NCBI GenBank assembly: GCA_007693585.1
Contig: REDH01000075.1
Coordinates: 9,066-73,065 of the forward strand
Direction: 5' to 3'
Origin: Deltaproteobacteria bacterium
GTDB taxonomy: Bacteria > Myxococcota_A > Bradymonadia > REDH01
DNA: 64,000 nucleotides
Part shown: piece by piece, positions 19,863 through 37,729 of the stretch
How positions within the stretch are numbered: position 1 is the stretch's first letter
How the letters are laid out: each line of letters opens with the position of its first letter
Translations under genes and position numbers: made by a program
Notes under the pieces: model-generated
The model's database searches: none
What the model was told of the DNA's origin: nothing
The model's input: only the letters and a program-made list of their open reading frames with translations

Positions 19863-20579
19863 ATGAAGAAGAGGCTCATCGTCACGGCGGTTGCTGGCAC
19901 CGTCGCCCTGCTCCTGCTTTCGCCCGCCTCCGCCGAAGCGGAAGGCGACGATTCTCCGACTGCCGGCATGATTGCGCAGGCGGGAGATGCTGCGAGGGAC
20001 GGCAGTCGGACGGAACAGCGCCCCCTCGACTTCGACATGCGCATGCGCGAGATCGAAGACCGCGTCGGAGAACTCAAGGACGAGGTCTTCCGTTCGCGTT
20101 CTCGCCTCTTTCTGCTCCGCGAGCAGGTGCTTCAGGATCGAATCGGCGGATCCAGGGTCGTGATCAACCACCGCGACCGCCTGGGCAACCGCTACCGCGT
20201 GGTCCGGGTGCTCTACGCGCTCAACGGCGAATCGGTGTTCGTGGCCAACGAGGATACGACGGACTTTGCGGCCATTCGACACCATCAGGTTCACTCGGGA
20301 TCGGCCATTGCGGGTCCCCAGAACATCACCGCTCAGGTGTGGGTCGTCGGGAACCCGCTCGGTGTCTTCTCCTACATGTCGGGTTATCGCTTCACCATCC
20401 GGAACGCGCACTCCTTCAGCGTGGAAGAGGGCCAGACGGCCGAGATTTCGGTGGTGATCGAGAGCCGGGGCGGCGTGAACACGCCCATCGACGAGCGGCT
20501 CGTCGTTCGCTTCGATGCCGACTTCTACGACACCGTGGATGGGGTCGGTGACGAGGTCGCTGCCGGGCAGACCCCCTGA
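19863..20579 (+). CDS. Exported coiled-coil plus beta-sandwich hypothetical protein, first gene of the Glt-like cluster
   Basis: Signal peptide; MREIEDRVGELKDEVFRSRSRL coiled coil; GVFSYMSGYRF. The stop overlaps the next start (TGATG). Confidence 0.8.
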   Translation: MKKRLIVTAVAGTVALLLLSPASAEAEGDDSPTAGMIAQAGDAARDGSRTEQRPLDFDMRMREIEDRVGELKDEVFRSRSRLFLLREQVLQDRIGGSRVVINHRDRLGNRYRVVRVLYALNGESVFVANEDTTDFAAIRHHQVHSGSAIAGPQNITAQVWVVGNPLGVFSYMSGYRFTIRNAHSFSVEEGQTAEISVVIESRGGVNTPIDERLVVRFDADFYDTVDGVGDEVAAGQTP

Positions 20580-23263
20580 TGTTCCTGCGCTTTCCTCATC
20601 TCGGGGTCTCCGCGTTCGCCGCGTGTCTGGTCCTCGTTCCGCCTGTGACCGCATCGGCCCAGTCGGTAGGCGATCTGCGCTCTTCCGTGGAGCGAGTCGA
20701 GGGCATCATCGCGGACATGGCGACGTTCGATGAACGCTTTCTCGGTGATCTCTACATCGATCGGGCACGAGACTTCGAGCGCCGGATGGTGGAGGGACGG
20801 CTCCTGGTCGACCTCGAGCAGCATGATGCCGCGGCCATCCTGCTGATGGACCTGTTCGAAGACCCCCGGCATCGTGAGCGTCCGGAGCGCACGGAGCTGC
20901 AGCGCCTGCTGGCGGACAGCCTGTACGCATCGGGGGTGCATGATCTTGCGGTGCTGCATTACCGGGCGCTGTTGTACGAGCGAGATGCGGAGCTTCAGGT
21001 GCATGCGGGTCAGCGCCTGCTGGACATCGCCCTCCGAACGGGGCGCGTCGACCGTCTGCCGGAGACTCTCCGTGTGCTTGAGGAGGCCCTTCAGGGTCGG
21101 GACGCCGACGACGAGCTCAACTATCTGCGTGGCCGGGCGCTCTTCCACACCGGGGAGCGCCAGGCCGCCCTTCGGGCGTTCGATACCGTTCGCGGGAGCA
21201 GTTCGCTGGCAGAACGAGCATCCTACTTCGCAGCCGTCGTCGAGGCGGCGCTGGGGGACCACGAGGCTGCCCTGAGTCGGTTCCGCGATCAGTTCACGCG
21301 TCTCGCAGACGCCGGCGATGAATTGGCCAGAGAACTCCGCAACCTTGCGGCACTCGGTGCGGCGAGGGTTCTCTACGAGCAGGGGAACTGGACCGGCGCA
21401 CTGGGATTCTACGGTCGCGTGGATGCGGATTCGCGGCACTTCGACCGAGCGCTCTACGAGAGCAGCTGGACGATGATTCGCCTGGATCGCTTGCCGCAGG
21501 CCAGTCGCGATCTGGAGATTCTGGCTCTCACCGCACTGGACAGCCGAGTTCGGCCCGAGGCGCTGCTGCTGCGGGGCGAGACGGAGCTGCGGCGTGGCGA
21601 GTTCGACTCGGCTGTTGCCGTCTTCGAGGAAGTCAGGGCGGCCTATGAGCCGATCGAGGACGAGGTGCGAGACGCCATGGGTCTTCTCCAGCGCCGCGTG
21701 CGGGAGGAGGGGGTGACCATCGAGGGCTTGCGGATTCGACGCATCCTGTCGCCCCGCGCGCGCGACTGGCTGGATCGGGGGCGGGGGTCGGCCTCCCTGC
21801 TCGAAGACCTGGAGGACCTTCAGGCGGAGTTGCTGTTTCAGGTACAGCTCGTCGAGGACCTGAACGAAGCGCTGGCGCTCGATCGGCAGATCGCGGGATT
21901 TCCCATCCTGCGGAACGGCTGGAACCTCGCGCTGCAGTACCGAATGGAACTCGTGGCCATGGAGTCGTCGTTTCTCGACATGGAGCGCGATGCGCTCTGG
22001 GATCGACTGTCCGATGAAGAAAGGACGCGCTATCGAAGCATTCGCAACCAAAGGGTGATGCTGGCCCGCCAGGTGCAACGTCTGCCCAGCACAGCCCGGG
22101 CGATGGGGGAGCGAGAGGAACAGCGTGCGGCGCGAATCCGAGGCGCCGAGCAGGAACTCTTCCTTGCCATGCAGGAGCTGGAGGCCGATTCGGCCAGGCT
22201 CGATGCGATCGAGCAACTCGTGCGCGACGCACAGCGCCGCGGGGAGCCAATGGAGGACGAGGAACGGATTTTCGGGAACCTGGAGGTGTCACGCCAACGC
22301 GCTGCCGCCAGGATGGAAGTTGCGGAAGATCTGCGTCGACGACTCTCCCGCCTGCGTGCCGAGGCGCTCGGTGGAGGAAGCCTTACCCCGGATGAACGAG
22401 CCGCGCTCGACGCGTACGAGACGGTCGTTCTCGAGGAGCGTACCTTTCTTCAGCAGTACCGTTCCCGAGTGAGAGGATTGTCACCTGTCGACCCGGGGCG
22501 AGGCGACGCATCCGGGCGCGTTGCCCGCCTGCAGGCCGAAGGCGTCCTCGTGCGACGGGACCTGCGACAGCTACTGGACGAGATCGGACCGATCGAAGCC
22601 GCCCTGGATGACGAGCAGTCGCTCACGGAGAGCGAGCGCTCCCGAGCCCGCGCCGAGCTTGATCGATTGCGGGCCGACCTCGCTGCGCTGCTCGAACGGC
22701 TCGACGACGAGGTGGTGGCAAGGCTTCAGCGCGAGGAGGCAGCTCTCGGTGACGTCGTGGACGAGAGCGAACACGAACGCACCGCGAGGGTGGAAGAAAT
22801 GGTCGATGATCTGATCCTGCTGGAGCGCGGCGCGCTGACCGCGGCCGAGATCGAACGTCGAAGGGAACTGCTTGGGCGGATCGACGAGGCCCGGGCCCGT
22901 CGTGATGTGGCAGAGCGCCAGGTGGCGGGGTTCTTCGCCGCCGCACAGGCGGTCGTGGCTGCTGAAGGTGATCGACTGCGGATCGCGCTCGATGCAGCCA
23001 CCGATGAAGTGATCGCCCTTCAGGAGCAGTACGTGGTCACGGAAGCCGTGGCGCGACGCGCGGCGCTCGATCAGGCGCTCCTCGCCCTGGCTGGGGTGCG
23101 AGACCGCTTCGCCGATATCAACCTTCGGGCGAACCTGGGCGTGCTGGACGTCTCATGGCGCGAGTTCGAGGAAGCCACAACCGAGCGTCGGAATGTCACA
23201 CAGGAGCGAATACGTTCACTCAATGTGCTTCGCGCCGACTTCGAAGAGATTCTTGGGGAGTAG
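20579..23263 (+). CDS. Exported TPR / long coiled-coil protein (GltC-like)
   Basis: Signal peptide (ASA-QS), N-terminal TPR-like helices (YLRGRALF, AARVLYEQG, ALYESSW) and about 450 aa of predicted coiled coil. Confidence 0.75.
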   Translation: MFLRFPHLGVSAFAACLVLVPPVTASAQSVGDLRSSVERVEGIIADMATFDERFLGDLYIDRARDFERRMVEGRLLVDLEQHDAAAILLMDLFEDPRHRERPERTELQRLLADSLYASGVHDLAVLHYRALLYERDAELQVHAGQRLLDIALRTGRVDRLPETLRVLEEALQGRDADDELNYLRGRALFHTGERQAALRAFDTVRGSSSLAERASYFAAVVEAALGDHEAALSRFRDQFTRLADAGDELARELRNLAALGAARVLYEQGNWTGALGFYGRVDADSRHFDRALYESSWTMIRLDRLPQASRDLEILALTALDSRVRPEALLLRGETELRRGEFDSAVAVFEEVRAAYEPIEDEVRDAMGLLQRRVREEGVTIEGLRIRRILSPRARDWLDRGRGSASLLEDLEDLQAELLFQVQLVEDLNEALALDRQIAGFPILRNGWNLALQYRMELVAMESSFLDMERDALWDRLSDEERTRYRSIRNQRVMLARQVQRLPSTARAMGEREEQRAARIRGAEQELFLAMQELEADSARLDAIEQLVRDAQRRGEPMEDEERIFGNLEVSRQRAAARMEVAEDLRRRLSRLRAEALGGGSLTPDERAALDAYETVVLEERTFLQQYRSRVRGLSPVDPGRGDASGRVARLQAEGVLVRRDLRQLLDEIGPIEAALDDEQSLTESERSRARAELDRLRADLAALLERLDDEVVARLQREEAALGDVVDESEHERTARVEEMVDDLILLERGALTAAEIERRRELLGRIDEARARRDVAERQVAGFFAAAQAVVAAEGDRLRIALDAATDEVIALQEQYVVTEAVARRAALDQALLALAGVRDRFADINLRANLGVLDVSWREFEEATTERRNVTQERIRSLNVLRADFEEILGE

Positions 23264-23268
23264 CTGCG

Positions 23269-26200
23269 ATGCGGATTCCCGAATGCTTTCAGTCCCGTCT
23301 GACGGACACGCTGCGCTCGGCGACGCTTGTGCTGTCGATCCTGCTCGCACATGGGGCGGTGGCGCTCGCCGGCGACGTACCCGACAACCCCGGCGACATG
23401 GAAGCGATGCGTCAAGGGGCTGCCGATGAGGACACGTCAGCCGATGAAGAGGGAGACGACGAATCCGCGTCCAGCGAAGATCGGGACGAGGAAGTTGGGG
23501 GGGGGCTTTCACGTTCGCTGCCGAGGGCGAGCGGACTATCGGCACGCGGCCGTGTGGAGCTCGGGCGATACGAGGAAGCGTTGCGCCTCTACTCCGATCA
23601 GTTCGAAGCGTTCCGCGAAGCCGTGGCTCGCGTCGTGCAGGAGGAGTACGAGCGACAGGTGCGGGTGATTGACGAGCGGCTTCAGCCTCGCATGGAGGAA
23701 GCGCGGAACCGGGAGACAAGGCACCGGCGGGACGCAATTGCTTCGTTCAGCCAGTTTGCGGAGCGATATCCGGATCATCCCGAATTTACAGGTGACGTTC
23801 TCTTCCGCCTCGCTCGACTCCAGAACGAGGAGGAGCAATACCTCCACATTCAGGCACTGAACGCGTACGACGAGCAGCAGCGGCGGTACGAGCTCGGCAT
23901 GATTCCGGAACCGCCGACCTTTCCCATGCTGGAACATGTGGACAGCCTTGCCACACTCTCTCGATTGCTGGAGACCTTTCCGGAATACCGTTACGCGGAC
24001 GCGGCCCTCTACCTGCTTGCAATCGGCCAGCAGGACGAGGAACTGGGCATGGCCTACTATGAGCGACTGATCCGGGAACGGCCCGACTCGGAGTTTGTCC
24101 AGGAGAGCTGGCTGCGAATCGGAGAACTTCTGTTCGATCTTGAACGGTTCCGAGACGCTCGCGAAGCATACCAGGAAGCGCTCGCCCTCGGCCCGTTCAA
24201 CCGTACCGACCTCACTCTCTTCAAGCTCGGGTGGACGAACTATCTCCTCAACGACTTCGGGTCTGCCCTGGAGAACTTTCACGATCTGCTCGTGCTGTAT
24301 CAGGGAGACGAAGAAGCGGCATCGGTGCTGGAAGAGGCACGTCAGTACTACGCAATCGTTCTTGCCGAGCGCGACTGGAACCTCGATGGTCAGGTGGACG
24401 AGGACTTTCTCATGCCGCGTGTGCGGCACTATCTGTCGGGAGACGCAGGCTACGAACTGCCGGTTCTTGACGTCATGGCGGAGTTGCTCAGGGAACTCGA
24501 ACCGCGCGAAGAGTACCTGCTTCACACCTCGGATGTCATGGCATTTGCGGTCGCGAACTTCCCGCTCGATCGGGATACACCATCGCGCCATCTGCTGGTG
24601 TACGAGATTCTCTACGCGCTGGACTATGAGGAGGAGGCCGTGGCGGTCCTCGCCGAGATTGCGGCAAACTACGGTCCCGACAGCGATTGGTTCCTTGCCA
24701 TGGAGCTTCAGGGAGAGATCGAGGCCATGGCGTTCGCCGAGCGACTCGGCCGTGAAGCCATGCTGAACAGCGCGGCGATCGCATTCTTTCGTGGCCGAAC
24801 CCATCGGGACGAGTACGAACTGTCAGGCGATGCGACCCTCGACGAGCGTGCTGTCGCATCCTTTCGGCAGGCGGCAGAGATCTACGGCGACTTTCTGAGC
24901 AGTTTTCCGAATGACGAAGCGGTCTACGAATCGCGATTCTTTCGGGCACGCGCACTCCATGAGGCACGACTGTACGAGGACGCCGTGGAGGAGTATGCCC
25001 GGGTTCGGGACTCCCGGTTGAGCGAGGCGCATCAGGAGGAGAGCGCAGCGCGACACATCGAGGCTCTCACGGCCCTTGCGCAGCAGGAGGTCCTGGCCGG
25101 GCTTCTCGACCCGAGGGGCGTCCCGGATCAGCCCAGCGAATGGCCCCGGCCGCTCGACGAAGGCGAAATCCCGGAGCCGGAGTCCATTCCCGACCGACTC
25201 CGGCAATTGCTCGCTTCGTACGACCGCTACATCGAGCTCGACGTCACGGTAGAGGACAGCCCCGAAGTTCAGGGCGAGGTCGCCCTCGCTGCCGCGCGAA
25301 TCCTCCTGGAGTACGAACACAACCGTGAGGCGCGCCAGCGCTTCGTGCAGATGTTCGACCGGTACTGCGGCGAACGCCCGGCGGGCATTGCCGCGCTACT
25401 CCTGATTCAGTCGTACGAACGGGAGGGTGATTACCGACACATGGAGTACTGGGCGAATCAGGTCGAGACCAGGTCGGACTGCATTTCACTGCCAGGTGAC
25501 GATGCACAGCGCTTCGCGGAGAATATCGACATCTACCGACGCAATGCTGCGTTCGCGAATGCGGAGAGACTGCGGGAGGCCGGGCGCTACGAAGCCGCAG
25601 CGCGTGAGTTCACACGAATCGCAGAGGCCTATCCGGAGTCCGATGATGCGCCGATCGGGCTCTATTTCGCCGGTGAGATCTACGAGGAGGAACTCCGACG
25701 ATATGACCTCGCCATGGAGCGCTTCCGCACGCTGTACGAGCGCTATCCCGACACGCGATTCGCAGAGCCCGCTCTCCTCAGCCTTGCCATCAACTCGCAA
25801 CAGTTCTTCGACTTCGATGGTGCGATTGCAGCCTTTCGTGAACTGCATACGCGCGGCTTCACCCTGCCCGCGGAAGGGGGAGGGCCCCGTTACCCCATCC
25901 TTGTGGCTGCCGAGATGCACGAAGTTCAGCGACAGCATGATCAGGCGGCAGAGGCTTACCTGATGTTCGTGGACGACAACCCCCGGGCACCGGAAGCGCC
26001 CCGTGCACTGTACAGGGCCGCCGTGAACCTCGATGAGTCGGGTCGACAGCGTGAGATGGCAGACCTGATCGAGCGACTGATTCGTGAGCACGGAACACAG
26101 TCCGAAGTCGGCGGCTTCAACATCGACAACGCAGTCATCGATGGACTGGCGCGCGTGGCCGCATGGCATGGTGCACGCAACGACGCTCGGAATCTACGTC

Positions 26201-26976
26201 GCTTCGAGGACCGCGTTCTCAATGAATTCGAAGGCCGTGTGCCGCGTGATTGGGAGACCCCGGAGGAGCTGGCCCGAAACGCTCCTGCCCGGCGCGCGGC
26301 GGCCGACATCGCGATGCGACGTGCCCAGGAGTCGGTCGCCGAGTGGAGGCGTATCTCCGTCAGCAGCAATCCCCGCGCCGCACAGCGAGACATCGAACGA
26401 AAGAGGGATGGTCTCGCCACGGCGATTCAGGAGTTCGTGGACGTGGATCGATTGTTCAATGATCCGGACGCCAGCATCTGCGCCCGGCTCGAACAGGGAC
26501 GGGTCGCGCGCGAAATGGCGGACTTCATCTTCGATCTTCCGGTGCCCGACTTTCAGGGGGACATCTACGCGGAGGACGCGTACATGGAAATCATCGAGGA
26601 CATCGTCCGACAGTATGAGGAAGTTGCTCTCGCCGAATGGCTGGAGCTGTACAACCTCATCGAGGAGATGGGCGTCGTGAACGACTGTACCATCGAAGCC
26701 TCGACCCTCCTGAATCAACGGTTCGGCGCCGAGTACCCTGCCTACAAGCAGCGAATGCGTCCAGCCAGCTCCCGCGTGCTCTTTCCGGGGCTCATCAACG
26801 TGCCGGTAGGCGTTTCGGTCCGTGCCAGCCATGCACCAACGCCCGACACGAATCTCGACGATATTCCGGCGCGCACCGATGCGTCTGGTCGGGACGAGGA
26901 AGCTTCGGAGCCGCCCGGTGCGAGCGAGACCGAAGTTCGTGCCGCGCCGAACGAGGAGGAGCCGGAGGATGAGTGA
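23269..26976 (+). CDS. Giant periplasmic TPR protein (GltD/AgmU-like)
   Basis: ATG 5 nt after the upstream stop; signal peptide. Many TPR/BamD-like repeats (ERYPDHP..DVLFRLA, ESWLRIGE, LFKLGW, AYPESDDA). Directly upstream of gltE/gltF-like genes. Confidence 0.82.
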   Translation: MRIPECFQSRLTDTLRSATLVLSILLAHGAVALAGDVPDNPGDMEAMRQGAADEDTSADEEGDDESASSEDRDEEVGGGLSRSLPRASGLSARGRVELGRYEEALRLYSDQFEAFREAVARVVQEEYERQVRVIDERLQPRMEEARNRETRHRRDAIASFSQFAERYPDHPEFTGDVLFRLARLQNEEEQYLHIQALNAYDEQQRRYELGMIPEPPTFPMLEHVDSLATLSRLLETFPEYRYADAALYLLAIGQQDEELGMAYYERLIRERPDSEFVQESWLRIGELLFDLERFRDAREAYQEALALGPFNRTDLTLFKLGWTNYLLNDFGSALENFHDLLVLYQGDEEAASVLEEARQYYAIVLAERDWNLDGQVDEDFLMPRVRHYLSGDAGYELPVLDVMAELLRELEPREEYLLHTSDVMAFAVANFPLDRDTPSRHLLVYEILYALDYEEEAVAVLAEIAANYGPDSDWFLAMELQGEIEAMAFAERLGREAMLNSAAIAFFRGRTHRDEYELSGDATLDERAVASFRQAAEIYGDFLSSFPNDEAVYESRFFRARALHEARLYEDAVEEYARVRDSRLSEAHQEESAARHIEALTALAQQEVLAGLLDPRGVPDQPSEWPRPLDEGEIPEPESIPDRLRQLLASYDRYIELDVTVEDSPEVQGEVALAAARILLEYEHNREARQRFVQMFDRYCGERPAGIAALLLIQSYEREGDYRHMEYWANQVETRSDCISLPGDDAQRFAENIDIYRRNAAFANAERLREAGRYEAAAREFTRIAEAYPESDDAPIGLYFAGEIYEEELRRYDLAMERFRTLYERYPDTRFAEPALLSLAINSQQFFDFDGAIAAFRELHTRGFTLPAEGGGPRYPILVAAEMHEVQRQHDQAAEAYLMFVDDNPRAPEAPRALYRAAVNLDESGRQREMADLIERLIREHGTQSEVGGFNIDNAVIDGLARVAAWHGARNDARNLRRFEDRVLNEFEGRVPRDWETPEELARNAPARRAAADIAMRRAQESVAEWRRISVSSNPRAAQRDIERKRDGLATAIQEFVDVDRLFNDPDASICARLEQGRVAREMADFIFDLPVPDFQGDIYAEDAYMEIIEDIVRQYEEVALAEWLELYNLIEEMGVVNDCTIEASTLLNQRFGAEYPAYKQRMRPASSRVLFPGLINVPVGVSVRASHAPTPDTNLDDIPARTDASGRDEEASEPPGASETEVRAAPNEEEPEDE

Positions 26977-28423
26977 CTCTGCGGGACATGTGTTTTTCGC
27001 CCGAGGTGTGCTGCTGAGCTTCTGCCTCATGACGGCATGGGGATGCGCTGCGGGACATCAGCAGGCAACTGCAGACCCCTCCGATGGCATTGCAGTGACC
27101 CCCCAGCAGCGCCCGAATCCGGAGCTGGTCCACTCCATCTGGGACGAGGACGCCGTGGCGTTCGAGCCCGATGAGGAACGACCCGCTGTCGACGAAGCTG
27201 CCGACGATGACGACGATCTTCTCGATGTCGAACTGGAAGAGGAGTTTGCGGACGTACTCCCGCCCGAAGAGGAGCCGGAGACCGAGGAGCCCTGGGACGC
27301 GCGAGCGCTTGAGGCCTTCGCCGCAGCACGCGCCGATGTACTCGGCTCTCGCTATTCGAACGCGCGACGAACGCTCCAGACATTTCTGGACCACGAAGAC
27401 CGGCGTGTCCGTTCACTGGCGCAGCACAACCTTGGCGTGGTGGCATGGTACGAGGGAGACCATGTGTCCGCCGAGAGCGCGTTCAGACGCGCCATGGACG
27501 AAGACCCAGGCCAGGCCGCACCGCTGAGAGCGTTGGTGAGGCTGTATCTCGCGGACGGACAGCACGACCATGCACGGTCTCTGGTACGCGAGCAGGTGAC
27601 CCTCTCGGAAGAAGCGGCCTCGATTCGAGCCGTGGAGCTCCTGCTCCTGCTGGAAGAGGGACGCGATCAGGAAGTGGAGGAGCTGTCCCGTGCACTCCTT
27701 CTCGAAGATGGAGCCAACCTGGATATCTTTGAGGCCCTTGCCTTCACACAGCTCAACGCCCAGCGACTTCCGCTTGCGGAGTATATCGCGGAGCAGGGAC
27801 TCGAACGCGACGAGACACGAACCGAGCTGTGGTACGTGAGGGCAGTGACGGCAATGGAAAGAGGCGACAATCTGACCGCAATCCGCCATCTGGAAACGGC
27901 TCGGGAGCGCGGAGCAAACACGCGACAGCCCGAGCTGCTGAATCTGCTGGGCGTACTCTACCTCCGAACGCTACGCTGGGAGGATGCACAACGTGTTCTC
28001 GAGGAAGCCACGAGAGCTGCTCCCAGCTACGCCGACGCCTGGGTCAACCTTGGAAATGCGCATGTAGGCTTGCGTGACTATGATGCAGCTCTCGTCGCGT
28101 ATACGAGAGGACGTGATCTTGGCCTCGAAGGGGGCGGTCCACTGTTCAACCTGGGCCTCCTGTACATGGAACCCGGCTGGGAGCACATGGAACGCATCGC
28201 GCAGCTTCGAGAGGCAATCGAATTCTTTGATCGATTCGCTGCGGAGCGTGGCGACATTCCCGAGTCACATCTTGTGCACGAGTACCGACGTGAAGCGCTG
28301 GCCGCAATTGAGGGAATGGAAGCGCTCGCGCGCCCACGAGAGCAGCCTGTCGAGCCGGTGTGCGACGACCCGTTCGGCTGCGACGATGAGCCGGTGTGCG
28401 ACGACCCGTTCGGCTGCGACTGA
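26969..28423 (+). CDS. TPR lipoprotein (GltE/AglT-like)
   Basis: GGAGG SD; lipobox AWGC; TPRs HNLGVV, NLLGVLY, WVNLGNAH, FNLGLLY; overlaps the gltD-like stop. Confidence 0.8.
   Translation: MSDSAGHVFFARGVLLSFCLMTAWGCAAGHQQATADPSDGIAVTPQQRPNPELVHSIWDEDAVAFEPDEERPAVDEAADDDDDLLDVELEEEFADVLPPEEEPETEEPWDARALEAFAAARADVLGSRYSNARRTLQTFLDHEDRRVRSLAQHNLGVVAWYEGDHVSAESAFRRAMDEDPGQAAPLRALVRLYLADGQHDHARSLVREQVTLSEEAASIRAVELLLLLEEGRDQEVEELSRALLLEDGANLDIFEALAFTQLNAQRLPLAEYIAEQGLERDETRTELWYVRAVTAMERGDNLTAIRHLETARERGANTRQPELLNLLGVLYLRTLRWEDAQRVLEEATRAAPSYADAWVNLGNAHVGLRDYDAALVAYTRGRDLGLEGGGPLFNLGLLYMEPGWEHMERIAQLREAIEFFDRFAAERGDIPESHLVHEYRREALAAIEGMEALARPREQPVEPVCDDPFGCDDEPVCDDPFGCD
28352..28420 (+). repeat. 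Two identical 33-bp direct repeats (36-bp period) encoding EPVCDDPFGCD twice
   Basis: gagccggtgtgcgacgacccgttcggctgcgac at 28352-28384 and 28388-28420. Confidence 0.95.
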
Positions 28424-28449: not shown

Positions 28450-28728
28450 ATGAATGGCGCTGACGAAGTGGGCAGAGATCGTTTCGCGGGGTGGGGCAAG
28501 AGTGTTGCCTGCGCGTTTCTCGGCGTCGGGTTGCTGGCACTTGCCTCTGTCGAGGCCGTGGCTCAGTCAGGCGTCATTCGGCTGGAAGAGGAGGTATTCG
28601 AGGTGGAGATCGAAACCCCGACGGCCACGCTCTTTCTGGCACCGCATGCGCTGGAGTATCGATTCCGCGAGCCGGTAGACTCCTTTATGGATGCTCTTCT
28701 CGAAACCGTGGAAGACGAGCCGTTTTGA
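28450..28728 (+). CDS. Small exported protein, GltF/CglF family
   Basis: 92 aa; signal peptide, then IRLEEEVFEVEIETPTATLFL...SFMDALLETVEDEPF, matching the GltF pattern that ends in PF. Confidence 0.8.
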   Translation: MNGADEVGRDRFAGWGKSVACAFLGVGLLALASVEAVAQSGVIRLEEEVFEVEIETPTATLFLAPHALEYRFREPVDSFMDALLETVEDEPF

Positions 28729-29624: not shown

Positions 29625-29664
29625 GGGCTCGGTCTGCGACTGAATGCAGGCTGAGCCCATTTTT
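29625..29664 (+). terminator. Intrinsic terminator/attenuator-like hairpin between the aglR-like and first exbD-like genes
   Basis: GGGCTCGGTCTGC (29625-37) pairs with GCAGGCTGAGCCC (29646-58): 13 bp including 2 G-U pairs, 8-nt loop, followed by ATTTTT. Confidence 0.65.
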
Positions 29665-29722: not shown

Positions 29723-30511
29723 ATGGCGAAGCGACGCAGGAAAGATGTGGTGGATGAGGTCCAGGATCTGAACCTGGCGCCGATCATGAACATGGTCATG
29801 ATTCTCATTCCACTGCTGCTTCTCTCCACCGAGTTCATGAAGGCCGGTGTGGTCAACATCAGCTCGCCGCGACAGGCACAGGCGACGCAGGCTGACAGCG
29901 AGGAACAGGAAGAAGAGGATCCGGTGCCCCGAGTACTGATCGCGATTTCCAGTGATGGTTTTCGTGTGATGGACCAGCGCAACCTTCCGGACTTCGCTGG
30001 CTTCACGACGCCGATCGAGCGATGTGGCGGCGCAGCCGCGGCGGGTGGAGAGGAGACGCCGGCGGGTGGGTCGCCCCACGCGCGAGCAGAGACCCTTCCG
30101 CCGACGATTTGCTTGCGCACGGAGTCGTCCGATGGTGACGCGCTGCTCGACCGGCTGGATTACGCCTCGCTCTACAATCACCTTGCGACCATCCGGCTTC
30201 AACCGCAGTGGTACGACCGGTTCTCCGAGGAGAACAATGACGTGATCAGCCTGCTCGCCAGCCCCGAGGTGGATTTCGCGTCGCTGATGAAGACCATGGA
30301 TACCGTCCGGTTCTTCCTGAGGCCCGAGGGTACGGATCCAGGTGAGCCAAGTGGCGGAGCGAACATAGACGCGTTTCTGTTGGGGGGAGGCGGCGAGCCG
30401 ACGCTCGAGCAGCTCGAGAACGCAACGTATCTCACCGGAGGCGAGGACGGCCCGTACCGGTTCCGACTGTTTCCCGACCCAGTGCTGATGTTGCCGCGTG
30501 CAGGTGGCTGA
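29723..30511 (+). CDS. ExbD/TolR-family subunit (AglQ/S-like), enlarged, with Asn in place of the TM Asp
   Basis: GAGGAGGAG SD; TM LNLAPIMNMVMILIPLLLLS; C-terminal ISLLASPEVDFASLMKTMDTVR...LFPDPVL. Confidence 0.85.
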   Translation: MAKRRRKDVVDEVQDLNLAPIMNMVMILIPLLLLSTEFMKAGVVNISSPRQAQATQADSEEQEEEDPVPRVLIAISSDGFRVMDQRNLPDFAGFTTPIERCGGAAAAGGEETPAGGSPHARAETLPPTICLRTESSDGDALLDRLDYASLYNHLATIRLQPQWYDRFSEENNDVISLLASPEVDFASLMKTMDTVRFFLRPEGTDPGEPSGGANIDAFLLGGGGEPTLEQLENATYLTGGEDGPYRFRLFPDPVLMLPRAGG

Positions 30512-30583: not shown

Positions 30584-31189
30584 ATGTCTGACATTATCAG
30601 CGGACCGCAGCAGGATCAGGATGACGCGCTGGATGCGGACAAGAAGGCGAAACGCGCCGCTCGTTCCGCTTCAAGGCGCGACGACGGTGGTGGTGGGCTG
30701 AACATCAACTCGATGATGGACATGATGACCATTATCCTGGTGTTCCTTCTGAAGAGTTACAGTACCGAGCCCATCCAGATCAATCAGAGCGAGGACCTCC
30801 GACTTCCCTGGTCAACCACGGAGTTGGCGCCCGAGGACACGATGACCATCACGCTCACGAAGACGAGTGTCCTTGTGAATGACGAGCTTGTGGTTGCGGT
30901 CAACGATGATGGTCGAATCGACCCATCGCATCTGCAGTCCGCCGATTCGCCACTGATCCCCAATCTTCAGCAGAAGATCGAGGACGAGCTTGAGGTAGCC
31001 GCCCGAAATCGGCTTCGAGGTTCAGGCGATGTCCAGCGCGTGGTGACCATCATTGCGGATTCTGATGTGCGTTACGAACTCCTGACTCAGGTGATGATCA
31101 CGGCGTCTGCGGCGCAGGTGCAGAACTTCAAATTTGCGGGAATTCAGCGCGAACAGGGATCAGGTCTGCTGCAGGCGGCTGCGCCCTGA
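30584..31189 (+). CDS. ExbD/TolR-family subunit (AglQ/S-like) with the canonical TM Asp
   Basis: LNINSMMDMMTIILVFLLKSY; IIADSDVRYELLTQVMITA. Confidence 0.9.
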   Translation: MSDIISGPQQDQDDALDADKKAKRAARSASRRDDGGGGLNINSMMDMMTIILVFLLKSYSTEPIQINQSEDLRLPWSTTELAPEDTMTITLTKTSVLVNDELVVAVNDDGRIDPSHLQSADSPLIPNLQQKIEDELEVAARNRLRGSGDVQRVVTIIADSDVRYELLTQVMITASAAQVQNFKFAGIQREQGSGLLQAAAP

Positions 31190-31291
31190 GTTCTGCCCGG
31201 GAGGGTGCGCCGCCACAACTGTGCAGGCAGGCGGAGTAGGAAGATGGAATTGACCCCGCACGTTTCTGGAAGACCGTAGCCTGGTGTAGCG

Positions 31292-32662
31292 ATGGCGACA
31301 CAGTCCGGACAGAAGATTCTCCGAGTAGGTGTGATTCAGAACGATCGGGTGATCGAGGAACGAATCTTCCGCACTCGTGAGTCCGTGACGATCGGTCAGG
31401 GGTTCCAGAACACGCTGGTCGTCCCGCTGGCCGAGGCGCCGAAGTCCTTCACGCTCTTCGATGTGCGCGGCGGGAAGTACTACCTGTGCTTCACGCCCGA
31501 GATGAGCGGCCGAGTGGCATCGGGAGCGTCCGCCACTTCCCTGGCCGAACTTCGTTCGAGTGGAAAGGCCACGGTGTCCGGAAAGGCGGCGATGGTCGAG
31601 CTGCCGGAGAATGGACGGGGCAAGGTCACCCTTGGGGAAGTGACGTTCCTGTTCCAGTTCGTGAATCCACCTCCACTCCGCGTCCTTCCGCAGCTTCCCG
31701 CGAACATGCGCGGGGGAATGCTTCAGTTTCTCTCGACGATCATGGGTTTGAGCGGCGCCTATCTCTGGGCATTGCTCTTCTCGTTCATCGTGCAGTTTGG
31801 AGCTGCGCTCTACCTGGTTCTGCTTGTCCCGCCGCCACCGCGCCCTCGCAGCATTGATGAAATGTCGAGCCGCTTCGTGCGGGCTGTGGAGCTTCCAGAG
31901 CAGCAGGAACAGGAGCCCGACGAGTCGGAGCCGGATGACTCCGCCGAGCTCGTGCCGGAGGCGGCACCCGAGCCCGAACCAACGCGGGAGCGGGAGCCTG
32001 AGCCGGAACCGTCGGTCGAACGACGTCCGTCGGAGACCCGGGAGGAAGCCATGCGAGTGGTGGAACAGACTGCGATCGGCGCTGCCTTTGTAGCCGACGG
32101 TGGCATTGATCTGGGACTTTCCGCGGTAGATCGAACGGGCCAGCGTGACCTTTCCGAGGTGCTGGCCGGCGGAAATATCGGAGGGTCCGAGCCCGGGCTG
32201 GCGAGCAATCTCGGTGCCCGTCCAGGGATCGATCCCGGTCAACGGCCGGCGACAGGGAGCAACATCGACACCAGCTCAACGGGACCGGCCGTCGCGACAG
32301 GGCCTGCCGACTCCGGGCCGAGTCGACCCACCGGGTCCATTCGTGCAGGCGGCTTCGAAACGGCCGGGACCGGTTCACTCGATCGGGACAACATCAACGG
32401 GGTGCTTCGTCGCGCGAATCGACAGATCGAGTCGTGCTATCAGCGCGCACTCGGAAACAACCCGAGTCTTGCCGGACGAATGGAGGTGCGTTTCGAGATC
32501 GGTGGCGATGGTCGAGTGGCCAGCGTGCGGATTCCGAGCCACAATCTTGGACGAGAAGTGCAGTCGTGCATCGAGGGTGTTTTTCGCGGTCTGAGGTTCC
32601 GTGCGCCCGACGGCGGATCGGTCTGGGTGCAGCGGCCGTACGTCTTTTCGTCCGGACGCTAG
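31292..32662 (+). CDS. GltG-like TonB/TolA-type energy transducer (AgmX/PglI C-terminal domain)
   Basis: Cytoplasmic beta domain (KILRVGVIQNDRVIEERIF), one TM, EP-rich then Gly-rich linker, C-terminal IESCYQRAL..NPSLAGR....FEIG..G.V...C...F..PDGGSV....PYVF. Confidence 0.88.
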   Translation: MATQSGQKILRVGVIQNDRVIEERIFRTRESVTIGQGFQNTLVVPLAEAPKSFTLFDVRGGKYYLCFTPEMSGRVASGASATSLAELRSSGKATVSGKAAMVELPENGRGKVTLGEVTFLFQFVNPPPLRVLPQLPANMRGGMLQFLSTIMGLSGAYLWALLFSFIVQFGAALYLVLLVPPPPRPRSIDEMSSRFVRAVELPEQQEQEPDESEPDDSAELVPEAAPEPEPTREREPEPEPSVERRPSETREEAMRVVEQTAIGAAFVADGGIDLGLSAVDRTGQRDLSEVLAGGNIGGSEPGLASNLGARPGIDPGQRPATGSNIDTSSTGPAVATGPADSGPSRPTGSIRAGGFETAGTGSLDRDNINGVLRRANRQIESCYQRALGNNPSLAGRMEVRFEIGGDGRVASVRIPSHNLGREVQSCIEGVFRGLRFRAPDGGSVWVQRPYVFSSGR

Positions 32663-32883: not shown

Positions 32884-33456
32884 ATGGCTAGTCTACGTAT
32901 CTTCGTTACGGGTTCTTGGGCCGCGCTCATGCTGATTGTGCTTTGCTCGGTGGCGTTTGCCGTCGAGGAAGAACCCGAGCAACTCTCGGACGAGGCGGTC
33001 GATGCGTTGATGGAGGAGGCCGCCGAGCTCCTCGCTGGAATCAACAGTGACGTGGAGCGGGTCGTGGCGATCGAGGGCGAAGTGCGAGGCAGCGACCCCG
33101 ATCTTGCGGATTCGTGTGTTGCTCCGGTTCTGACCACCATCCGGGCCATCGGAAGAAGCGCCCAGCAGCAAGTCGAGGCGATGTCGGGCCTGGTGCAGGA
33201 CGGCCGTTCAGACCAGCTGAGCAGGGAGATGAGCTCCCTGAGCCGGCTCGCTGCGCAGGCCGCAGGAAGCAGGCAGGAGGCGGAGCGCTGTCTCGGTGAA
33301 GCCGAGGGAGTGAGTGATCCCGTGGACGGACAGACAAGGTCCGCCGAAATCGACGAACCCCTTGATGGAGCGGATCTCGACATGGAGTTCGATGCCGTGG
33401 TTGACGACGACGTGGTTGTCGATGATCGTACGCCGGAAGCAACTCCCTTCTTCTGA
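32884..33456 (+). CDS. Exported helical hypothetical protein with a Cys pair
   Basis: AGGAG SD; signal peptide (AFA-VE); DSCV...EAERCLGE; acidic tail ending ATPFF; stop 1 nt before the beta-barrel gene. Confidence 0.75.
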   Translation: MASLRIFVTGSWAALMLIVLCSVAFAVEEEPEQLSDEAVDALMEEAAELLAGINSDVERVVAIEGEVRGSDPDLADSCVAPVLTTIRAIGRSAQQQVEAMSGLVQDGRSDQLSREMSSLSRLAAQAAGSRQEAERCLGEAEGVSDPVDGQTRSAEIDEPLDGADLDMEFDAVVDDDVVVDDRTPEATPFF

Positions 33457-33457
33457 G

Positions 33458-34768
33458 ATGTCCATGATGCGTTCGTTCATGTCCACCAATCGCCGGAACC
33501 CGTCGTGTGCCTTGTCGGCACTCGCGGTGAGCGTTCTGATGGTGTCGACCTTTGCGGGAACCTCAGAGGTGGCGGCGCAGGACGGCGTGTCAGTCGGTGA
33601 GCTGCGCCTTGGCGCCGGACTCGGCGCGGGTGCAGGGTACAACAGCAATCTGTTCCTCGCCGCCGATAACAATCCCGATGGACAGGTATCGTCGGTCAGC
33701 GCCTTCGTGGAGCCACGGATCGGCCTGTCGACCATCGAGCCGAGAAGCTACGACTTCGATCTCGAACTGTCGGCCGAATGGATGCAGTACATCAGCGAAG
33801 AAGAAGGCGAGCGGGAGCAGAGTGGACTATCATTGACGGGACACACGGGTCTGCGACTCAATCCGATTGGGGATGTCAGCGCTGCGGCATCCTTCCGGGT
33901 AAGGCGAACGAACGACCCCGCCTATTCGGTCGACGGTTCACCGCTGCGGAACTGGCGTTTGGCACCCGGCGTGGAGGTCGGTTTCCATCCCGGTGGAATC
34001 GGGGAGTCGCGCCTCGGATTCAGCGGTTACCTGCGTGGCACGTATCGAGTCGCCCGGTTCGAAGAGCGGTCGCAGCTCGATCGAAACACCCCAGGAGTCA
34101 GTGCGCGGCTTCAGTACAATTTCCTCCCGCGAACGGCCCTCTACGTCACCGGCGGTCTGGCGCGAACGATGTACGTGGATGAGCGCGATGAGGAAGGAGG
34201 AGCGGGGGAGGATGCCCGGAGTGCCGCGCGTTCGGACTCGACGTCGCTGAACGGTGTTCTCGGTTTCACAACAGCCTGGACGCGGTTTCTTGGAACACGT
34301 ACGGCTGTAGGTTACGCAAGTATCAATCACGATGTGGGCCCCAGTGCGGCAGCGTTGACAGCCGAGGCATCGGTGATGCTGCAGCCTGTGTCCTCCCTTC
34401 GGCTGACCGCTGGATGGCGGCGAGGGCTCGAGGATTCTCCCGTGGCGAATGCGCTCCGGTATGATGGGATTCGGCTCGAGGGAAGCTACCGGTGGAACAT
34501 CGTCGAGCTCGAGGCGTATACGGGTCTTCGCTTCGTGAGACTCGATTCGTTCGTGTCCGGAGATGGAGAACTCGAGGATCGGACGGATCGATTGCTGGAC
34601 GCCGGTTCGTCGCTGCGGGTGGCGGTGGCTCGAAACGTCGGGATCGGTGTGCGCTACCGGCTGCGAAGCAGTCTGGATGAAGCGGAAGAGTTCGAGGAGG
34701 GTGTCAGTGCGCTGCCCCGCGGCTATGTGCAGCATCTGGTCTCGGGTGGAGTGGATGTCCGGTTCTAG
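33458..34768 (+). CDS. Outer-membrane beta-barrel, probable polysaccharide-export porin (EpsX/ExoB/Wzp-like)
   Basis: Signal peptide; GAGYNSNLF; alternating amphipathic strands; C-terminal GVDVRF beta-signal; directly upstream of a short OPX. Confidence 0.78.
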   Translation: MSMMRSFMSTNRRNPSCALSALAVSVLMVSTFAGTSEVAAQDGVSVGELRLGAGLGAGAGYNSNLFLAADNNPDGQVSSVSAFVEPRIGLSTIEPRSYDFDLELSAEWMQYISEEEGEREQSGLSLTGHTGLRLNPIGDVSAAASFRVRRTNDPAYSVDGSPLRNWRLAPGVEVGFHPGGIGESRLGFSGYLRGTYRVARFEERSQLDRNTPGVSARLQYNFLPRTALYVTGGLARTMYVDERDEEGGAGEDARSAARSDSTSLNGVLGFTTAWTRFLGTRTAVGYASINHDVGPSAAALTAEASVMLQPVSSLRLTAGWRRGLEDSPVANALRYDGIRLEGSYRWNIVELEAYTGLRFVRLDSFVSGDGELEDRTDRLLDAGSSLRVAVARNVGIGVRYRLRSSLDEAEEFEEGVSALPRGYVQHLVSGGVDVRF

Positions 34769-34808
34769 CCAACGGACGTCTCCGCGAGCACAGTCGAAAG
34801 GAGGAGCG

Positions 34809-35435
34809 GTTGCGCTACGGAAGCAGCGCGCGCTGCTGGTCCTGTTGGTTCTGTGCGTCGTGGGATTCGCGTCTGCATGCGGTACGCGGATCAGTTCCGA
34901 CTATCTCGCGCACTCGCTGGATTCGTTTCAAGGCGAGTTCTCGACTGCATTGGGTCCGGGTGATCGGTTCGAAGTCCGGGTGTTCAGGGAAGAGGAACTC
35001 TCTGGGGAGTACTCCGTTTCATCCCGTGGGATAGTCGGCTTCCCGCTTGTCGGTTCGTTTGAGGTTGCGGGCCTGAGCTGTGAAGACGTGGAAGAGATTC
35101 TGGTGGAGCGCCTGGGTGATGGGTTGATTCATGAACCATCGGTACAGTGCAGGATCGTCGAGCAGAGATCCCTGCAGGTTCTGGTCGTCGGTTCTGTGAG
35201 TTCACCGAGGAGCATTCCCTACTCGGATTCGCTCACGATTGTGGAAGCGATTGCGTTGGCGGGGGGACTGTCGCAGAATGCGTCCGAGGACCGTGCCATT
35301 GTCACGCGGCGTGTGGACGGAGAGATGGTGGAGATTGAGGTGCCGCTTCGGCTGGTCATGAGTGGACGGGCTCCCAACCTGCGGCTCTGGCCGAACGACC
35401 TTGTGTTCGTGCCGGCTTACCGGTTTCTGCAGTAG
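34809..35435 (+). CDS. wza: Short OPX (Wza-family) polysaccharide export lipoprotein, Poly_export plus SLBB
   Basis: Lipobox ASAC; LGPGDRFEVRVF, GIVGFPLVG..VAGL, AIALAGGL, LWPNDLVFVP. About 208 aa with no C-terminal OM helix. Start codon uncertain (see findings). Confidence 0.9.
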   Translation, partial: VALRKQRALLVLLVLCVVGFASACGTRISSDYLAHSLDSFQGEFSTALGPGDRFEVRVFREEELSGEYSVSSRGIVGFPLVGSFEVAGLSCEDVEEILVERLGDGLIHEPSVQCRIVEQRSLQVLVVGSVSSPRSIPYSDSLTIVEAIALAGGLSQNASEDRAIVTRRVDGEMVEIEVPLRLVMSGRAPNLRLWPNDLVFVPAYRFLQ

Positions 35436-35485
35436 AACGCTCACGGTGTGGGTGGCCACGGTCCACCGGAAAGGAACAGGGAGCC

Positions 35486-37729
35486 ATGGAAGCTGGGGAG
35501 CGTCGAGAGTCTAGTGCGGGGGACCGGAACGCCGATGGTTCGGTGGCGGCGGTCCAGTTCTGGATCGGCCTTCTGTGGAGACACGCCTGGGCCATGCTCG
35601 CGGTGTTCGTGGTCGTGTCTGCCGGAGGGTACTGGTACACCATGCAACAGCCGAATGTCTATCAGGCTTCGGCAACGGTACTTGTGTCGCCCGAAGGCGA
35701 TCAGGTTCGCGCGCTGAGTCCTTTCGGAGATGGAGCGGCTCCACAGGGGAGCAGCTTCATGGCCAACAGGATCCAGTTCGCCATGCAGGAGCATCTGCTG
35801 CGGAGTCCCGAGCTTCTGGACGAGGTCGCCGAGAGGCTATCGTTGCGGAGTAGCCCATCATTCCTCGGTCTCTTCGGTGACGAAGCCACACCAGACGCGA
35901 TTGTGGAACGATCGGCAGTTGCAAATCCGGCGATCATGCTCCGCGGAATGCTGCGCGTGAACGCGGATGATGAGCGAAGAGTGGTGCAGATTACGATGTC
36001 CTCCCGGGATCCTGTTCTGGCCGCGGACGTGGTGAACGCTGTGGCGGAGGCTCACGTGGAGAGGAACCTCCTGCGCCAGCTCGAGGCCACGGATCAGGCG
36101 CTGGACTGGTTGATGGAGCAGAGCGCAAGCCTTCGCTCCTCATTGGAGAACGCCGAGCTTGCGCAGTTGGACTATCTGCGTGACCAGGGAACGCTTTCGG
36201 TCGCGCTCGACGATAGGCGGAACCTGAGCGTGCGCGCCGTGGAGGAGTTGAGCACTCAGCTGGCGAACGCAAGACTGGAGGTGGACAGGCTGGGTTCGGT
36301 CGTGCGGCAGATTCGCACGTACGACTCACTGGATGATCTGCTTGCGGCGAATATTCCGGAAATACTGGATAACAGCATGATTCAGTCCTTCAAGGGTCAA
36401 CTGGTGGCTCTGGACGAGAGGGACCTGGAACTGCGCGAGCGCTACGGTGAGCTGTGGCCTGAGCGACGCGCGGTACTCGCAAGAAGGGAGATGCTGGAGA
36501 ATGTCCTTGAGCGGGAGATCCAGAACGTTCTTCGTTCATACGTCCAGCGTTTCGAGACGGCACAGCTTCTCGAGCGTACGGTGGCCGAGCGGCTGTCCAG
36601 CGCGCAACGGGATGTTTTGCGAAGTGGAGAGAACGAAATTGCATTCAACGCGCTCCGTCGTGAAGCGGAGACGAATCGCGAGCTCTTTGGAGTGATGGAG
36701 CGCCGGCTGAAGGAGATCGAGCTTCACCGCATGTTGCAGCACAACAACCTCAGTGTGCTGGAGTCCGCAGTCGTCCCCGTCGTTCCCGTTCGGCCGCGAA
36801 GGGCAGTGTATTTTCTCGCGACACTGTTGCTTGCGGGTGTTCTGTCCCTTGGAACCGCTCTTGCGCTGGAGTTTCTGGATCAGAGCGTCAAGCCCGATAC
36901 CGACTTCGACCGCGAGTTCGGACTTGGACTCCTCGGAATGTTGCCGGAGATCTCTGCAGGCAAGGGGCGTCGAGGGAGTTCGCGTGGTCCGGCCAAGGGC
37001 CAGGAGTTCAACCCCGACATCTTCGTTCACAGCTTTCCACGTTCCGGAATGGCGGAAGCGTGTCGGTCCATCCGTACCAACCTCTTGTTCATGGACCGTG
37101 AGGACACGCTGAAGCGAATGCTGGTAACGTCCAGCGGACCGCGCGAAGGGAAGACGCTGACATCGGTCAGCCTCGCTACGGTGTTCGCGCAGTCCGGGAA
37201 CCGCACGGTGCTTGTGGATGCGGACATGCGCAAGCCAAGACTCGGAAGGGTGTTCGGGGTCGATGATGCAGGTCGAGGTCTGGTCAATGTGTTGGTGGGA
37301 GAGTGCACGCTTGATGAGGCGCTCGTGGAAACCGAGGTGCCGGGCCTCTTCTTGCTTCCGTGCGGTTCGGTACCTCCGAATCCGGTCGAGATTCTGCACT
37401 CGGTGGCCTTCGGCCGCTTGCAGGACGAGCTGGACGAACGATTCGATCGAGTGCTTTTCGACACGCCTCCTGTCGGTCCGGTGACGGATGCGCGTGTCCT
37501 CTCCGGGAGGGTGGGCGGCGTTGTTCTTGTCGCGCGCGCGTCGCATACGAACAAGGATGCGTTCGCGCGCGCGATCGATGACCTTGACGCAGTCAAGGCC
37601 AATCTCCTCGGCATTGTGCTGAACAGCGTGAACTTCGAGAAGCGGTCAACGGGAGGTGGGTACTACCGGTACTACTATCAGCAGTACAACCAGTACTATG
37701 GGGATGCGGAGGAGTCAGCGAGCAGCTAG
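35486..37729 (+). CDS. wzc: Polysaccharide co-polymerase with fused BY-kinase (PCP-2a)
   Basis: Two TMs flank a coiled-coil periplasmic domain. EACRSIRTN, Walker A GPREGKT, A' LVDADMRKP, B LFDTPP, Tyr cluster YYRYYYQQYNQYY. Confidence 0.95.
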   Translation: MEAGERRESSAGDRNADGSVAAVQFWIGLLWRHAWAMLAVFVVVSAGGYWYTMQQPNVYQASATVLVSPEGDQVRALSPFGDGAAPQGSSFMANRIQFAMQEHLLRSPELLDEVAERLSLRSSPSFLGLFGDEATPDAIVERSAVANPAIMLRGMLRVNADDERRVVQITMSSRDPVLAADVVNAVAEAHVERNLLRQLEATDQALDWLMEQSASLRSSLENAELAQLDYLRDQGTLSVALDDRRNLSVRAVEELSTQLANARLEVDRLGSVVRQIRTYDSLDDLLAANIPEILDNSMIQSFKGQLVALDERDLELRERYGELWPERRAVLARREMLENVLEREIQNVLRSYVQRFETAQLLERTVAERLSSAQRDVLRSGENEIAFNALRREAETNRELFGVMERRLKEIELHRMLQHNNLSVLESAVVPVVPVRPRRAVYFLATLLLAGVLSLGTALALEFLDQSVKPDTDFDREFGLGLLGMLPEISAGKGRRGSSRGPAKGQEFNPDIFVHSFPRSGMAEACRSIRTNLLFMDREDTLKRMLVTSSGPREGKTLTSVSLATVFAQSGNRTVLVDADMRKPRLGRVFGVDDAGRGLVNVLVGECTLDEALVETEVPGLFLLPCGSVPPNPVEILHSVAFGRLQDELDERFDRVLFDTPPVGPVTDARVLSGRVGGVVLVARASHTNKDAFARAIDDLDAVKANLLGIVLNSVNFEKRSTGGGYYRYYYQQYNQYYGDAEESASS

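Follow-up and report, generated by a model that had tools for sequence, protein, structure and literature searches.

A cluster of 13 genes, designated g01 to g13, lies between positions 19863 and 37729 of a 64,000-nucleotide stretch of DNA (contig REDH01000075.1; the whole stretch is referred to below as the window) from an uncultured bacterium of the Bradymonadia (Myxococcota). The cluster encodes proteins resembling the Glt envelope proteins of Myxococcus xanthus, an AglR-like channel subunit with two ExbD-like partners, an outer-membrane beta-barrel, a short outer-membrane polysaccharide export (OPX) protein and a Wzc co-polymerase. Our preferred reading, to which we give a probability of roughly 0.55, is that the cluster is a motor-bearing form of a conserved trans-envelope machine represented by the G4 cluster of M. 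xanthus and by the Glt "core complex", that a WzpB-type barrel forms the outer-membrane end of this machine, and that the machine acts on exported polysaccharide. The gene order is far beyond chance, because it recurs in relatives across the phylum, and the linkage of the Glt-like genes with the barrel and OPX genes is conserved rather than unique to this genome.

Conservation of the linkage across Myxococcota

Loci in related genomes were scored using jackhmmer profiles built from the window proteins, and for each gene only those loci long enough to show it were counted. Three sets of loci were compiled, which overlap in genomes and contain relatives that are not independent of each other. 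Set A comprises 28 loci around GltG-like matches from 30 relatives in six families of Bradymonadia; Set B comprises 79 loci found via the AglR-like protein, with one genome per species; and Set C comprises 31 loci from 28 families. For Set C, a sample of 401 Myxococcota genomes was searched with the AglR-like protein; 279 of them had a match at E <= 1e-40, and 28 loci (1-3 per family) were picked out of the 150 best matches. The remaining three loci were found via OPX and GltD-like searches.

At the family level (Set C), a g01-type gene was present at 26 of 26 loci, a GltF-like gene at 30 of 30 and an AglR-like gene at 28 of 31, while the barrel gene was found at 28 of 30, the OPX gene at 20 of 29 and wzc at 6 of 27. 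The corresponding values within Bradymonadia (Set A) were 20/20 for g01, 25/27 for the GltF-like gene, 23/28 for the AglR-like gene, 22/25 for the barrel, 22/25 for OPX and 12/25 for Wzc. Set B gave 63/66 for the barrel, 60/64 for OPX and 14/58 for Wzc; six of its loci were without a GltG-like match, five being too short downstream of the AglR-like gene, and one full-length locus (L079) carries motor genes only. The genes that flank the cluster in the window were seen at 0 of the 31 Set C loci, for which only the downstream side could really be assessed.

These counts bear on several claims of an earlier note on this DNA, which had been made from the sequence alone. Its caveat that the linkage might be conserved was well placed, as the barrel and OPX counts of Set C indicate. 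It had also presented the self-contained motor as an unusual feature, which does not hold: a single-locus core complex was described in 2011, and most of the family-level loci likewise carry the AglR-like gene. Finally, it had treated the barrel, OPX and Wzc as one unit. The link of the Glt-like genes to the barrel and OPX is indeed conserved, but Wzc is the weakest member, following at few of the family-level loci.

Five families (L134, L136, L137, L140 and L144) have no adjacent OPX gene. Their clusters retain the small exported ORF and the BBP2_2 barrel, with ftsK and lolA directly after the barrel, in the place of the OPX gene. Since the barrel is kept when OPX is not, it is the more constant member, OPX being a frequent and Wzc an occasional one.

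The motor genes can also be missing from the cluster. In three genomes from two other families (G249, G105 and G384), the order is g01, GltC, GltD, GltE, GltF, GltG, a small ORF, the barrel and OPX, with no motor genes; in a fourth genome (G374), a GltG-like gene lies 2.8 kb from an OPX gene; and two Bradymonadia loci (L031 and L032) also have no motor genes in the cluster. The GltG-like proteins of the motor-less loci outside Bradymonadia group with that of the window. Genomes G384, G374, G249 and G105 each encode two AglR-like genes elsewhere, in divergent orientation and ~0.5-1 kb apart (L189-L196), the products of which are 38-47% identical to g06. Two of these eight AglR-like matches contain an in-frame TGA.

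Gene content of the cluster

The host is represented by a metagenome-assembled genome of 4.97 Mb in 223 contigs, estimated to be 97.7% complete. The host is a soda-lake predator-type bacterium, and DNA nearly identical to window positions 28400-36000 occurs in three soda-lake metagenome runs from one study, one of which may have yielded the assembly. Gene labels (Table 1) were assigned from Pfam and NCBIfam scans together with N-termini read off the sequence, and the starts of g03, g04, g06, g07, g11 and g12 are corrected ones.

The ORF list of the window agrees with the earlier description of 13 co-directional genes with overlapping or near-abutting ends, and the family matches agree with most of the gene labels proposed at that time. 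Base 20579 is common to g01 and g02. Overlaps of 8 nt and 14 nt occur between g03 and g04 and between g11 and g12, respectively, and 1 nt separates g10 from g11. The widest gaps in the cluster measure 237 nt (between g05 and g06) and 221 nt (between g09 and g10; stretch 32662-32884). A consensus promoter scan of the region, which covers sigma-70 type sites only, found none. The hairpin downstream of the aglR-like stop might act as an attenuator or be no more than a stable stem; the number of such sites in the region (11) equals that expected from shuffled sequence (mean 11.2), so that the count gives no sign of a function.

Table 1. Features of the cluster, with positions in the window and the basis of each label.
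Feature	Position	Strand	Description	Basis
g01	19863..20579	+	exported protein, first gene of conserved cluster	signal peptide read from sequence
g02	20579..23263	+	GltC-like periplasmic TPR protein, 894 aa, signal peptide	NF033756 gliding_GltC and TPR families
g03	23269..26976	+	GltD-like large TPR protein, 1235 aa, signal peptide	TIGR02795 YbgF-type, size, position
g04	26969..28423	+	GltE-like TPR lipoprotein	NF033758 gliding_GltE, 47.6 bits (cut-off 225)
g05	28450..28728	+	GltF-like small exported protein, 92 aa, signal peptide	position and size only
g06	28966..29610	+	AglR-like MotA/TolQ/ExbB channel subunit, 3 TM-like segments	PF01618, 91 bits
hairpin	29625..29658	+	terminator-like hairpin, 14 pairs and T-run	between aglR-like stop and first exbD-like gene
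g07	29723..30511	+	ExbD/TolR-like, Asn replacing membrane Asp, AglS-like by position	PF02472, 26.8 bits
g08	30584..31189	+	ExbD/TolR-like with membrane Asp D46, AglQ-like	PF02472, 39.9 bits
g09	31292..32662	+	GltG-like bitopic inner-membrane protein	NF033768, NF033760
g10	32884..33456	+	exported three-helix-bundle protein	disordered acidic tail ending TPFF
g11	33458..34768	+	outer-membrane beta-barrel, signal peptide, C-terminal Phe	PF10082 BBP2_2, 25.6 bits (cut-off 23.7)
g12	34755..35435	+	short class-3 type OPX lipoprotein, Poly_export and one SLBB	PF02563, 56 bits; PF10531, 42 bits
g13	35486..37729	+	Wzc, PCP-2a (polysaccharide co-polymerase) with fused tyrosine autokinase	TIGR01007, 190 bits (cut-off 108), Wzz, GNVR

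The three motor genes comprise a MotA/ExbB channel subunit together with an ExbD/TolR subunit that bears the membrane Asp, the combination expected of an ion motor. Orthologues of g06 across the phylum are 52-79% identical to it. The position of the membrane Asp was taken from TolR and ExbD. Here, all 82 distinct g08-type ORFs in which the motif matched carry Asp (26 others had no motif match). The 69 distinct g07-type ORFs that matched the motif have N (50), S (9), A (7) or G (3) instead, and never Asp (37 others had no motif match). As the Asp is kept in all of these g08-type sequences, the motor looks functional. The placing of the Asp also rests on the result for the D28N substitution in AglQ (PMC3858216). 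In a same-family genome, one contig carries two AglR-like copies (L023 and L039), 79% and 78% identical to g06; the second of them lies between the GltG-like gene and the barrel gene, the usual place of g10.

Among the envelope proteins, g02 is collinear in the relatives, and g03 contains four stretches of YbgF-type repeats (TIGR02795, 115 bits). The best match of g03 in the motor-less genomes G249, G105 and G384 is the OPX-linked paralogue. A lipobox-like sequence (...TAWGC) was read from the sequence of g04, and g05 had no family match in the Pfam and NCBIfam scans. The AlphaFold model of g01 (mean pLDDT 81.6) consists of a long helix (residues 55-94) and a beta-sandwich, for which a fold search against the PDB returned only weak beta-sandwich matches (TM <= 0.34). 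The layout of g09 is that of a transducer spanning the inner membrane: a cytoplasmic N-domain, a TM segment at residues 149-167, a Pro/Glu-rich linker and a TonB-C-like AgmX/PglI C-terminal domain, which scores 77.5 bits on NF033768, over the cut-off of 40. A sequence search with g09 against the PDB gave no match.

Homologues of g10 are scarcely found by sequence search (3 matches), while an ORF of ~180-250 aa with a signal peptide occupies its position in the relatives. Among 92 distinct ORFs at this position, 49 end in [ST]P[FY]x0-1, and more end in near variants. In the AlphaFold model of g10, helices span residues 36-136 at pLDDT >95, and the tail (residues 137-190) is of low confidence. 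WzaB of M. xanthus docks on the WzpB barrel via a C-terminal Phe-Phe (PMC12819527), and a similar docking role for the g10 tail is an attractive guess.

The barrel g11 is WzpB-like in position and in size (~395 mature residues); a sequence search against the PDB gave no match. Barrels of the WzpB/EpsX type have 18 strands. The product of g12, a precursor of 226 aa with the lipobox FASAC, has the properties of a class-3 OPX protein: it is short, contains Poly_export and SLBB domains that extend to residue 221, is lipidated according to its lipobox and, judged from length and alignment only, has no Wza_C helix to span the outer membrane. Its closest solved relative in a PDB sequence search is 9N9A (E 1.1e-28), which is M. 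xanthus WzaB according to the paper of the depositors, and the same entry is closest to the OPX protein of the motor-less genome G384 (E 1.7e-37). g12 is the only Poly_export match in the host genome at its estimated completeness. All features of a PCP-2a Wzc are present in g13, namely two TM segments, Wzz and GNVR domains, the P-loop of a bacterial tyrosine kinase (GPREGKT) and a Tyr-rich tail with 8 Tyr within the last 25 residues.

On either side of the cluster, the window contains housekeeping genes (GlmS, GlmU, LeuRS, ValRS, RibF, FtsH and others), and a family scan of these flanks gave no glycosyltransferase, Wzx or Wzy match. The G+C content is 0.60-0.65 at window positions 20000-50000 versus 0.67-0.71 in both flanks. 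Horizontal transfer, which such a dip over 20-50 kb might suggest, was rejected as an explanation, because the low-G+C stretch spans housekeeping genes as well as the cluster, and because the cluster tracks family-level relationships in the tree.

Relation to the gliding apparatus and to Tol-Pal

The host genome carries a second Glt-like cluster at positions 1-21000 of contig C83. This cluster consists of gltC (cut by the contig end), gltD, gltE and gltG, a gene for a TPR protein, and a GltI-like ORF of 4027 aa followed by a 16S rRNA methyltransferase gene. Its proteins are closer to the gliding models than are those of the window: 209 bits (for a 292-aa fragment) versus 59 bits for g02 on the GltC model, 121 versus 47.6 bits for g04 on the GltE model, and 308 versus 104 bits for g09 on the GltG model (NF033760). 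The window proteins are far below the gliding equivalog cut-offs of 450, 225 and 650 bits, respectively, and the C83 paralogues also score under the NCBIfam equivalog cut-offs. FHA-type matches are present at residues 16-102 of C83 GltG, whereas g09 has no Pfam match and no FHA-type NCBIfam match; in a 2025 structural model, the FHA domain of canonical GltG binds cytoplasmic GltI (PMC11761067). The identity between g03 and the GltD-like ORF of C83 is 24%. No motor genes adjoin the C83 cluster, and tblastn detected no further AglR-type gene of more than 32% identity within the host genome.

A quick IQ-TREE phylogeny was made with 44 members of the GltG family; the minimum length was 420 aa, which excluded shorter proteins consisting of the C-terminal domain. 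A branch with SH-aLRT support of 99 separates all 31 cluster-linked GltG-like proteins (31/31) from 13 paralogues, which include C83 GltG, the top GltG-model matches from five further genomes and the protein encoded at window positions 52815-54101; in none of these five genomes did a match reach the GltG cut-off. On these sequence comparisons, the cluster-linked GltG-like proteins are an orthologous group of their own, separate from the paralogues and from C83 GltG. The 52815-54101 gene (+ strand) encodes a second GltG/AgmX-like protein of 428 aa and is the lone gene of its kind within a housekeeping stretch. Its product, with 109 bits for the AgmX/PglI C-terminal domain and 139 bits for GltG, groups in the tree with a paralogue from genome G020 and not with g09 or C83 GltG.

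Homologous GltC/D/E/F/G-like and AglR/Q/S-like parts tie the cluster to the Agl-Glt system, and this homology could suggest that it is a second surface-motility apparatus, which the barrel would anchor in the outer membrane and for which the polymer would act as slime or as a gliding adhesive. Luciano et al. noted expanded core complexes in Bdellovibrio, which glides (PMC3169522), and slime polysaccharide helps Glt adhesion in M. xanthus (PMC7310880). However, Pfam and NCBIfam scans of the 13 cluster proteins gave no family match to GltA/B/H/K, GltI/J or a CglB-like adhesin, just as the earlier note had stated, and the sole GltJ match is to the C-terminal domain that g09 shares with it. The g09 protein has no FHA match, and a fuller canonical cluster is present on C83. 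In addition, M. xanthus still glides normally when the G4 homologue of gltD is mutated, and the core complex has been judged unlikely to drive motility alone (PMC3169522). We therefore regard a motility function as quite improbable. Given the closer C83 cluster and the separate grouping of the cluster-linked GltG-like proteins, the claim that this is not the canonical gliding set stands at the level of sequence; we propose that gliding is the task of the separate canonical glt cluster of C83.

A Tol-Pal-like system for envelope integrity or division has also to be considered, in which the motor would be the TolQR-like part, g09 would be the TolA/TonB-like protein, the TPR proteins would correspond to CpoB/YbgF, and the barrel would be an outer-membrane tether. 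The YbgF/CpoB-type repeats of g03, weak TolQ, TolR and TonB matches, and the FtsK and LolA genes after the barrel in five families are consistent with this idea. But the host has a true Tol system on contig C193, where a TolQ gene (234.5 bits, over the cut-off of 221) precedes ORFs that match TolR (85 bits) and TolA (33 bits) at scores under the cut-offs. In comparison, g06 scores only 54.5 bits on the TolQ model, which does not place it in Tol-Pal, the cluster contains no Pal or TolB match, and OPX is linked to it in most lineages. A Tol-Pal-like role is thus highly improbable. Two other MotA/ExbB genes of the host are located on contigs C165 and C74.

A machine that may act on exported polysaccharide

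The gltC, D, E and G genes and aglR, Q and S in one locus have been described as an ancestral core complex of which the function is unknown (PMC3169522), and Wartel et al. 2013 called the core complex a possible basal transport machinery (PMC3858216). The same seven gene types (g02, g03, g04, g09, g06, g07 and g08) are co-directional in the window, and they have the same order in 28 families. The window cluster differs from the core complex by the addition of g01, the GltF-like gene, g10, the barrel, OPX and Wzc. In gene content it is neither exotic nor unique; it belongs to a known paralogue family, of which it may represent a fuller, ancestral form.

In M. xanthus, the gltD homologue of the G4 cluster is MXAN_1922, and the cluster is of unknown function (PMC3169522). 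WzaB and WzpB are MXAN_1915 and MXAN_1916, respectively, and their genes are 23 bp apart (PMC9603273). MXAN_1922 is thus six tags from the wzpB/wzaB pair (MXAN_1916/1915), and the glt paralogue near wzaB/wzpB mentioned in the earlier note is borne out by locus tags. The motor-less loci of G249, G105 and G384 have the order that the M. xanthus tags suggest, whereas the window cluster has its own AglR-like gene, two ExbD-like genes and an adjoining wzc. From the tags and the relatives, the window cluster is probably orthologous to G4. We found no paper that links G4 or any Glt-like cluster with WzaB/WzpB, although Agrebi 2015 or the supplements of Luciano 2011 may already show part of the linkage. 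In the papers on OPX proteins and biosurfactant polysaccharide (BPS) that were searched, Glt terms were absent or referred only to the gliding apparatus, a gltB control strain or Nfs, none being tied to WzaB/WzpB.

The Agl-Nfs system provides the closest functional parallel. AglRQS with Nfs acts on the Exo polymer exported through Wza, so that a TolQR-like motor powers a Glt-type complex acting on polysaccharide that leaves through a short OPX protein and a partner barrel (PMC3858216). Nfs differs from the window cluster in that it draws on the shared AglRQS motor and possesses GltA/B-type barrels, and the window proteins group apart from other paralogues in the tree, where Nfs rows are unlabelled. 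In M. xanthus, the nfs genes (MXAN_3371-3378) are not adjacent to exo. The export genes, in turn, resemble WzaB-WzpB-WzcB and EpsY-EpsX, as a short lipoprotein OPX gene comes directly after the barrel gene and is accompanied by a PCP-2a Wzc. The parts, their orthologous group and the conserved order are established from sequence. From this synteny and from the analogy with Agl-Nfs, we infer that the machine may be coupled to polysaccharide export, with putative contact between the two sets of proteins, transfer of energy and a secreted polysaccharide as the substrate. The proposal of the earlier note that the machine may energize, gate or spread the polymer has the same basis.

If this is correct, proton flow through the TolQR-like inner-membrane channel of g06, the Asp-bearing g08 and the Asp-less g07 would drive conformational work in the TonB-like transducer g09. 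The scaffold of GltC/D/E-like TPR proteins would hand this work on to the barrel, as has been modelled for GltC acting on the GltABH porins, while the small exported proteins (g01, the GltF-like g05 and the helical g10) would be further parts on the periplasmic side. The barrel, OPX and Wzc would provide the exit for a secreted polysaccharide of the Wzx/Wzy type. The machine might either open or energize the barrel/OPX exit or, like Agl-Nfs with Exo, move the exit and lay the polymer down. A stronger version of this model holds that the barrel is a genuine subunit of an ancient Agl/Glt-type machine, and that in Myxococcota export through class-3 OPX/barrel translocons is gated mechanically, or polymer hauled, by the TolQR-like proton motor via GltG and the TPR scaffold. 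We consider this version less likely than not.

Several observations weigh against a coupling to polysaccharide export. OPX is gone from the cluster in 9/29 family-level loci and Wzc in 21/27, and the genomes of the five OPX-less clusters encode OPX elsewhere; adjacency is therefore dispensable. The 221-nt and 237-nt gaps in the window cluster could house internal promoters. The published contact motifs of WzaB, which binds both WzpB and WzcB, are Arg106-Arg107 and Phe203-Phe204 (PMC12819527). Neither is conserved in g12 when it is aligned to 9N9A: the Arg-Arg pair for WzcB contact is replaced by IHE, and the C-terminal Phe-Phe for WzpB contact is absent from an end that reads YRFLQ. No biosynthesis genes are nearby; the scanned neighbourhoods of the host genome gave no polysaccharide-biosynthesis family match, the initiating transferase family PF02397 (Bac_transf) has no match in the host genome, and Wzy_C has two sub-threshold matches only. 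A polar mutant in the gltD homologue of G4 was unaffected in motility, and a polysaccharide assay is unreported (PMC3169522). Finally, the GltG tree came from a quick search, and its groupings depended in part on the linkage.

Some of these points also fit two independent modules whose proximity is a matter of descent, in which case the Glt-like and motor genes would be unrelated to polysaccharide and the barrel, OPX and Wzc would work alone, like WzpB-WzaB-WzcB. The latter has been described as a full trans-envelope conduit, with no Glt-like partner (PMC12819527), and the loss of OPX and Wzc at many loci, the OPX genes elsewhere in those genomes and the two gaps within the window cluster are all in line with separate modules. 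However, the barrel comes after the Glt-like genes in nearly all loci of the 28 families while the window flanks were found in none, and it remains when OPX is gone. Moreover, only 1 nt separates the barrel from the preceding g10, a member of a family whose C-terminal tail is conserved, and the Glt-like set is otherwise devoid of outer-membrane components. Independent modules therefore seem unlikely to us, and we favor the reading of a motor-bearing G4/core-complex machine with a WzpB-type barrel at its outer-membrane end.

Since 2011, the Glt core complex and the G4, G5 and M2 paralogues of M. xanthus have lacked an assigned function (PMC3169522). The phylum-wide presence of a WzpB-like barrel, usually together with a WzaB-type OPX, at the end of the cluster leads to the prediction that G4 and M2 mutants alter the export or deposition of BPS. 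It also bears on the auxiliary gate in the porin that class-3 OPX proteins are proposed to require, a gap stated in the 2026 WzaB study (PMC12819527). Should the stronger version of the model be true, it would represent the first outer-membrane step in a Wzx/Wzy polysaccharide pathway to be energized by an ion motive force, and it would reveal the ancestral function from which gliding (Glt) and the winding of the spore coat (Nfs) were derived. Agrebi et al. 2015 (Nat Rev Microbiol 13:318) are said to have derived the gliding and sporulation machines from a capsule assembly system. The conserved linkage described here lends genomic support to the proposed descent of both machines from a system that handles polysaccharide.

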